Below are positions 27,059-28,078 of a DNA stretch of 64,000 nt, piece after piece; position 1 is the first letter of the stretch, and each line of letters begins with the position of its first letter. This DNA is from Eledone cirrhosa (Eukaryota): positions 1 through 64,000 of the forward strand of contig CAXHJY010000412.1 in the NCBI GenBank assembly GCA_964016885.1, given 5' to 3'. A program made the translations under genes and the position numbers. The notes under the pieces are model-generated. The model worked only from the letters and a program-made list of their open reading frames with translations, was not told where the DNA came from and searched no databases.

Positions 27059-27432
27059 TATGTACACGTACATACATATATGTATACAGACGCACAGTAG
27101 TATGTATATATATATATATACATACATGCACACATTTATATATGTACGTATGGATTCACCGAACATTTATTATAATGCTCAGTGTGTTTGTAAACAAACA
27201 TCCCGTATTAAGCTGTAGTGTCTAGCAACCATCGTTGCTCGTTTGTTCAACACTGACAAAGGAACGCTGTACTAGTTTCAAGCTTATTAGCTATATATAT
27301 ATATATATAAGACAAACATAGAATATTCGAAAATATTCTGTATGTTTATAATAAACATTTTGAAGACCCAATCGCTATAGAATAGAATACGTCACGTATT
27401 ACAATTTGAGATTCTCGATAAAAGCAAGGGAA

Positions 27433-27475
27433 GTAATCTACGCGTTTCATTCTTGTTAGAAATCATCAGGATTAC
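27433..27475 (-). ncRNA. Minimal type I hammerhead ribozyme
   Basis: Minus strand: gtaatc CTGATGA tTTCT aaca AGAAt GAAAC GC GTA gattac. Confidence 0.85.
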
Positions 27476-27831
27476 ATATCCAATGCTTTTATCGAGAACG
27501 ACACAGCTAGAGACTTATAGAATACTTAGCTGTGTACAGGAACTGGTTTGAAAGAGCGGTAGCCGGTCCGGCAGAAATTAGAATTTGGATTTAATGCTCT
27601 GAAATAGCGATATATATGTGAAGACAAACATAGAATATTCGAAAATATTCTGTATGTTTATAATAAACATTTTGAAGACCCAATCGCTATAGAATAGAAT
27701 ACGTCACGTATTACAATTTGAGATTCTCGATAAAAGCAAGGGAAGTAATCTACGCGTTTCATTCTTGTTAGAAATCATCAAGTATTCTATAAGTCTCTAG
27801 CTGTGTCGTTCTCGATAAAAGCATTGGATAT

Positions 27832-27874
27832 GTAATCCTGATGATTTCTAACAAGAATGAAACGCGTAGATTAC
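27832..27874 (+). ncRNA. Minimal type I hammerhead ribozyme (inverted copy)
   Basis: gtaatc CTGATGA tTTCT aaca AGAAt GAAAC GC GTA gattac. Perfect 6-bp stem I and palindromic stem III ACGCGT. Confidence 0.85.
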
Positions 27875-28031
27875 TTCCCTTGCTTTTATCGAGAATCTCA
27901 AATTGTAATACGTGACGTATTCTATTCTATAGCGATTGGGTCTTCAAAATGTTTATTATAAACATACAGAATATTTTCGAATATTCTATGTTTGTCTTCA
28001 CATATATATCGCTATTTCAGAGCATTAAATC

Positions 28032-28078
<47 letters not shown>

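Follow-up and report, generated by a model that had tools for sequence, protein, structure and literature searches.

A young two-armed insertion of a 312-nt hammerhead repeat in Eledone cirrhosa bears the layout of Penelope-like elements

The window analysed is a 64,000-nt stretch of the Eledone cirrhosa genome (assembly GCA_964016885.1, contig CAXHJY010000412.1, positions 1 to 64,000, forward strand), and positions refer to it unless a unit position or another locus is named. Within it lie two opposed arms of a short repeat that carries hammerhead ribozyme motifs. The features of the insertion are the following.

27292..27309, no strand: left (TA)n target remnant, from sequence
27309..27780, minus strand: arm 1, 472 nt, unit positions 153-312 then 1-312, with its 3' end at fixed site A (27309) and 5'-truncated at 27780
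27312..27349, minus strand: predicted hairpin just upstream of site A, from folding
27412-27426 and 27484-27498: 15-bp pair in arm 1 matching the stem I extension of arm 2, from repeat identity and folding
27433..27475, minus strand: second intact type I hammerhead motif, core at -27469, predicted cut between 27439 and 27438
27745..27780, minus strand: truncated third motif, cut at U4 by the 5' end of arm 1, with C3 and its 5' stem I strand missing
27780, no strand: head-to-head (5'-to-5') junction of the two 5'-truncated arms, with a 1-nt overlap
27780..28036, plus strand: arm 2, 257 nt, unit positions 94-312 then 1-38, with its 3' end at fixed site B (28035/28036)
27809..27895, plus strand: 15-bp distal extension of stem I, in which 27809-27823 pairs with 27881-27895
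27832..27874, plus strand: type I hammerhead motif, stem I GUAAUC/GAUUAC, core CUGAUGA at 27838-27844, predicted cut after 27868
27999..28036, plus strand: tail of the type seen in Penelope-like elements (PLEs), 38 nt from site A to site B, carried by a single arm at its outer end
28035..28076, no strand: right (TA)n target remnant, from sequence

Sequence self-comparison shows each arm to be 100% identical to one circularly permuted 312-nt unit, which bears out the identical copies, 1.5 in tandem and one inverted, of the preliminary description. The sense strand is defined as the hammerhead strand, placing the 1.5-copy arm on the minus strand. Arm 1 comprises 1.51 units, with 27621-27780 repeating the first 160 nt of 27309-27620 at 100% identity and a spacing of 312; 27780-28036 is in reverse complement and matches unit positions 94-312 then 1-38, again at 100%. 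Since the path 94-312-38 is absent from arm 1, arm 2 is not a single fold-back copy of it. The 3' ends of both arms merge into (TA)n, which may mask a target-site duplication (longer than 4 bp in metazoan non-LTR retrozymes, when present). The unit has a GC content of 34.6% and, with a longest open stretch of 56 codons in the trimer, is non-coding. Its 312/1 position is the fixed end at site A, and the ribozyme junction lies elsewhere, at unit 182/183; the supposed crossing of a monomer junction is thus passage through site A into 38 nt of PLE-type tail, and is not a sign of circularity.

An Rfam search of the whole window returned no match at the gathering threshold. The Pfam scan covered 39 of the window's 100 ORFs of at least 120 aa, the others being omitted as likely repeat-derived or overlapping, and gave no reverse transcriptase (RT) or endonuclease, only low-complexity matches below the cut-off; simple patterns revealed no Pol III A or B boxes. 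By all sequence tests the insertion is a young, ordinary small member of the non-LTR retrozyme or non-autonomous PLE kind.

Both intact motifs fit CUGAUGA...GAAAC...GUA with a 6-bp stem I in a pattern scan and lie in opposite orientation (+27838 and -27469), as had been claimed. The plus-strand motif has a basal U-U in helix II and a helix III of one pair plus a palindromic CGCG, and stem I is an open helix, which makes it type I and not type III. The cut proposed earlier, after 27868, is correctly placed on the motif. The second copy was likewise rightly described as halting in the hammerhead core at 27780 before the switch to the opposite strand, the third motif being cut there at U4. The internal repeat said to extend stem I does so over 15 bp, and the region 27805-27900 folds with a z of -6.07, none of 200 shuffles being as stable. 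For the unit z is -4.25, and for the circular monomer -4.5 with a core-closing pair probability of 0.85. For read-through RNA of both strands the prediction is a single long hairpin, in which the core-closing pair has a probability of at most 1e-6. Because such RNA would pair arm with arm and exclude both motifs, the two-armed copy is predicted to serve poorly as a ribozyme source and to be a product instead, and the presence of two opposed intact motifs would not make the locus active. The predicted hairpin upstream of site A, around which an end module is conserved in a 314-nt sister family, is a candidate recognition element for a reverse transcriptase.

Comparison with this sister family also bears on the fold. 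Among 23 stem positions, 9 are changed on both sides, 1 on one side and 1 is broken, and 12 are unchanged, including the basal U-U; pairs were counted from core anchors, the MAFFT alignment being out of register at helix III. In this single two-family contrast, stem covariation supports a selected RNA fold.

Other genomic copies, whose absence had been named as grounds for doubting the insertion, exist in large number: the 33-nt core has 5,179 exact matches in the 3.0-Gb genome and 0 in a reversed control. The unit search yielded 205 matches in the best 40 of 484 candidates, and the full-length ones among those listed are 95-100% identical to the unit. The recent retrozyme-like insertion recognised earlier thus belongs to a real, abundant family whose type I stems covary with those of the sister. 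The first 100 core matches form 13 clusters with units of 312, 310 and 308 nt; the 310-nt type, about 95.5% identical to the 312-nt unit, occurs in long, nearly uniform arrays. At L149, 13 identical units make up a homogeneous array. The 314-nt sister (L120-L139) is older, with 94-96% identity among copies, 2,671 candidates and about 67% likeness to the 312-nt unit; its copies end at homologous A and B sites, in shorter arrays and with a longer palindromic helix III. In run X4 (organism B) a diverged relative of the unit is found at high depth with fixed differences of its own, so that the family spans more than one labelled organism.

Insertion ends were classified by script at 40 loci, namely the window locus and 39 from the best 40 of 484 candidates. 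Head-to-head pairs account for 30 of them, single arms for 9 and another arrangement for 1; the inversion is family-wide and not peculiar to the window copy. By their outer ends the 30 pairs comprise 26 A+B, 1 A+A, no B+B and 3 with one end elsewhere, which gives A+B in 26 of the 27 pairs with both ends at fixed sites (p=2e-7). Site A lies at about unit 312/1-11 and merges via CACATATATAT into the TA run, and site B at about unit 36-44, some 38 nt further on; a TA-rich run follows 61 of 70 such ends under a strict 12-nt test. The script's length or identity filter dropped four pieces; one of them, at 88%, is the second arm of L042, which makes that locus another B+A pair. A second set, 13 loci drawn by chromosome order, has two arms at 9: strictly A+B at 7, and at 2 with one of the ends displaced by a few nt, A+A and B+B being absent. 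The remaining 4 are single arms, two ending at A and two at B.

The inner (5') ends are scattered. Their distribution round the unit is uniform (KS p=0.58), and 2 of 71 fall close to the predicted cut site, which the arms traverse up to 8 times. Arm lengths within pairs are uncorrelated (rho -0.07), and most arm junctions overlap by 0-10 nt. A retroelement ORF fragment lies near 8 of 73 loci, none of them continuous with an arm of the 312-nt unit. Two other identities were considered for the repeat and rejected: an autonomous PLE or solo pLTR, because no RT-GIY-YIG ORF runs into the repeat and the arms are unit multimers, and a plant LTR retrozyme, because the hammerhead is type I and no LTR-internal-LTR layout is present.

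According to the accessible text of Craig et al. 2021 (PMC8557442), PLEs are found with an inverted 5'-truncated copy, a tail of 30-40 bp that often occurs at one end only, and a bias towards microsatellites. The corresponding text of Frangieh et al. 2024 (PMC11167929) describes a PLE protein for which a dimer is predicted; at AT-rich DNA it cuts both strands and extends them, initiating at two internal sites that bound the tail. In the same text hammerhead cleavage is dispensable in vitro, and unprocessed RNA is the main substrate of the tested PLE. Judged by its sequence layout, the inverted arm plus tail of the 312-nt family is the inverted-copy-plus-tail footprint of PLEs, and PLE-type mobilisation of the family can be proposed with high confidence.

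Candidate machinery is plentiful, with 10,596 GIY-YIG candidates in the genome. The long ORFs scanned carry RVT_1 in 7 of 7 and GIY-YIG in 5 of 7, and those with RT and GIY-YIG mostly have a CxxxxCxxC linker, as in Neptune/Nematis. The coding RT+GIY-YIG elements at L112 and L105 show opposed arms with one short and one tailed end, both in TA. The regions downstream of GIY-YIG ORFs were compared in 50 stretches, taken from the 150 top-ranked of the 10,596, and revealed no coding PLE with the end module of the 312-nt family; the sample is small and score-biased. The locus L071 was rejected as a partner, its similarity being due to a 314-nt sister retrozyme inserted beside the PLE 3' end and not to the pLTR of that element. 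L100, L103 and L107 likewise carry coding RT+GIY-YIG elements whose linker is Neptune-like, with opposed arms and a choice of two 3' ends in TA; in the L103/L112 family a hammerhead-like motif lies some 380 nt beyond the stop.

Variants within and between arms inform on the number of templates. At unit site 166 (C/T), 0 of 33 multi-unit loci are mixed and all 24 arm pairs agree (15 T/T, 9 C/C; p=8e-7); at site 184 agreement holds in 24 of 25 arm pairs. At L033, L034, L053 and L065 both arms share fixed rare changes, and at L147 a 2-nt deletion occurs in all 20 complete units, across both arms. As the arms share a haplotype and several locus-private changes, a single template molecule or haplotype very likely served both. 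The circular or multimeric template suggested in the preliminary description finds support in these shared haplotypes and in the repeated crossing of the cut site, but not in the 312/1 crossing from which it had been read. A cleaved linear monomer as sole template was rejected, since it would halt cDNA at 183 and only 2 of 71 5' ends lie near the cut; jumping between different monomers is disfavoured by the absence of loci mixed at site 166.

Mixed arrays do occur, at L051 (3 of 5 units), L044 (2 of 3), L059 (2 of 5) and also L148. A variant pair recurs four units apart at L061:2272-3947; at L147:1507-7387 a variant pair lies seven units apart and 195C is present in one unit of each arm; at L148:2871-7460 variants recur at multi-unit spacing or in adjacent units. 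The patterns of L051, L044, L059, L061, L147 and L148 are beyond what one monomer circle can yield, so that further sources contribute: duplication or conversion at the DNA level, multimeric templates or assembly error. Singleton changes number 82 in 46 kb, most multi-unit arrays carrying unit-private changes, and no RNA-editing signal appears among these 82 (A>G 7, T>C 6). Locus-fixed A>G changes at 148, 149, 184, 202 and 302 hint at editing.

The reading we favour, and consider probable, is that the hammerhead repeat is mobilised in trans by a GIY-YIG PLE, with both arms copied from one RNA that is probably a 312-nt circle. A tandem array would be transcribed and its hammerheads would excise monomers, which would be ligated into circles; cleavage would probably take place as dimers, because helix III consists of one pair and a palindromic loop. 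The PLE protein, perhaps dimeric, would then cut both strands of a (TA)n tract. Reverse transcription would be primed from each DNA end, starting at site A for one and, about 38 nt away, at site B for the other. Each enzyme would travel round the template over an independent distance, and the resulting cDNA ends would finally be joined with short homology or none. Given up to 8 passages of an arm over the cut site and the scarcity of 5' ends near it, a monomer circle is the simplest template, and we judge it somewhat likelier than an uncleaved linear multimer. An extended version, with rather less than even chances, has a PLE RT dimer start from both ends of the break at the two fixed sites and roll round one hammerhead RNA circle; the circle would be the true replicating unit, and changes in one molecule, possibly A-to-I edits, would become array-wide. 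If true, this would join the inverted-plus-tail structure of PLEs and the multimers of retrozymes in one mechanism.

The main competitor retains the same PLE machinery and start sites and replaces the circle with an uncleaved linear multimer transcribed from a homogeneous source array, the hammerhead being a pLTR inheritance unneeded for mobility. The dispensability of cleavage in vitro (PMC11167929, in its accessible sections) agrees with it, as do the multicopy head-to-tail insertions formed by non-autonomous Chlamys elements (PMC8557442, likewise). Long homogeneous arrays such as L149 exist, and their uncleaved transcripts would likewise give homogeneous daughters; the periodic or mixed variant patterns at L061, L051 and L147 also fit. 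However, no multi-site mixed pattern common to different loci appears in the variant list, despite unit-private changes in most arrays. Rare changes fixed across all units of single loci point to a one-unit bottleneck, and the ribozyme stems have been kept through compensatory changes between families that are about 67% alike. We regard the linear multimer as unlikely, though the strongest of the alternatives. In a further scheme a PLE inserts only a short unit or two, arrays grow and homogenise at the DNA level by unequal crossing-over or conversion, and the inversion arises by fold-back. Such a route for tandem growth is favoured by Li, Clavereau and Pollet 2026 (10.64898/2026.07.22.740005, as far as its accessible text goes), and the period-4 and period-7 variant repeats and adjacent shared deletions are what it would leave. 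A single fold-back, however, cannot produce arm 2, whose path is missing from arm 1, and neither the A+B rule nor independent arm lengths would be expected from it. As a full account it is improbable, and DNA-level growth may lengthen arrays after insertion without explaining the layout.

The last alternative is an assembly or library artefact, with chimeric inverted reads. Palindromes are hard to assemble, and junction 27780 is unbridged by any independent contig or read from runs X1, X4, X6 and X21, a stretch so repetitive that this absence proves nothing; what those runs contain is mostly 90-99% relatives. Against an artefact stand the fixed and unequal outer ends at 26 of 27 loci, the sharing of these ends by the older sister family, the analogous ends of coding PLEs, and related sequence in independent DNA runs. 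We consider an artefact very improbable.

Metazoan non-LTR retrozymes, as presented in the main text of Cervera and de la Pena 2020 (PMC7229834), are also tandem, low-GC, non-coding units of a few hundred nt with one type I hammerhead each, and the 312-nt unit falls inside their range of 150-450 bp. Within that paper's main text, the axolotl motif HHR_Amex1 has the same helix III of one pair and a palindromic tetraloop, and HHR_Amex2 the same basal U-U in helix II; amphibian motifs with a similar helix III cleave efficiently only as dimers. Reverse transcription of circles is proposed there, with PLEs as candidate partners. RNA circles and cleavage are demonstrated for those retrozymes; for the Eledone cirrhosa family they are predicted. 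The words 'inverted' and 'microsatellite' do not occur in that main text, in contrast to the 312-nt insertions, whose paired head-to-head arms finish at two fixed sites in (TA)n. The accessible text of Li et al. 2026 (10.64898/2026.07.22.740005) likewise infers PLE dependence of animal retrozymes, from co-occurrence and pLTR homology, and reports in vitro cleavage of 1 of 9 predicted Xenopus retrozyme dimers. In that text the argument is phylogeny-based and favours local tandem growth, insertion ends and arm haplotypes not being part of it, and the pLTR homology is to a coding PLE, whereas none was found for the 312-nt family in the score-biased sample of 50 stretches.

With EN+ PLEs (PMC8557442 and PMC11167929, in their accessible sections) the family has in common an inverted 5'-truncated arm, a one-end tail of 30-40 nt, AT-rich or (TA)n targets, two start sites and a hammerhead. 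It differs from them in lacking an ORF, in arms that are multimers of one short unit and in a hammerhead whose stem I has a long extension. Non-autonomous Chlamys elements, MRC1 among them, in the same portion of PMC8557442, are likewise non-coding PLE dependants with multicopy head-to-tail insertions, but their 3' end resembles autonomous partners, and no such partner was found for the 312-nt family in the 50 stretches sampled.

The element classes themselves are already known. In the literature searched, supplements aside and partly in accessible excerpts, no description was found of retrozymes with a two-armed, tail-bearing, one-haplotype layout, and the accessible text of a repeat paper on O. 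vulgaris (PMC13282606) contains no mention of a ribozyme or retrozyme. Retrozyme circles as templates for PLE RT have been proposed in the part of the literature accessible here, and the 312-nt substrate permits sharp in vitro predictions. A very young family with two fixed start sites, one per arm, and a single haplotype at each locus also bears on how the inverted, tailed insertions of PLEs form, and it presents ribozyme repeats currently spreading through the TA microsatellites of an animal genome.

Several neighbouring sequences were recorded. A copy of a different high-copy repeat occupies window positions 27055-27296 (minus strand) and breaks off at the left TA run of the insertion. Its hammerhead-like motif (GAAACUAGUA) is minimal and degenerate; the repeat has 46 matches in 22 other loci and is very deep in the sequencing runs. 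Further left, 26222-26960 contains GT-rich and CCA-rich low-complexity repeats, and a 17-bp tandem array occupies 31264-31874. At 28221-28461 lies an older inverted insertion, self-complementary at 87%, in which a CUGAUCAAUGAAAC-like motif is present and one of the arms ends in TA; it resembles another two-armed insertion of PLE type. Short stubs at 28479-28545 (plus), 45840 (minus) and 58375 (minus) represent another hammerhead-like family that shares CUGAUGAUUUCU with the 312-nt unit and is also present in L058, L105, L109 and L111. The pattern scan found a separate hammerhead-like motif with a 6-bp stem I at 7078 (plus). Positions 44409-44540 give a translated match, 66% over 44 aa, to the end of a long L104 ORF that is dissimilar to the PLE ORFs. 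At L060, the sequence adjoining the single arm just 5' of 2274 is the first half of another hammerhead motif, resembling the one in L107, possibly through a template switch or a nested insertion.
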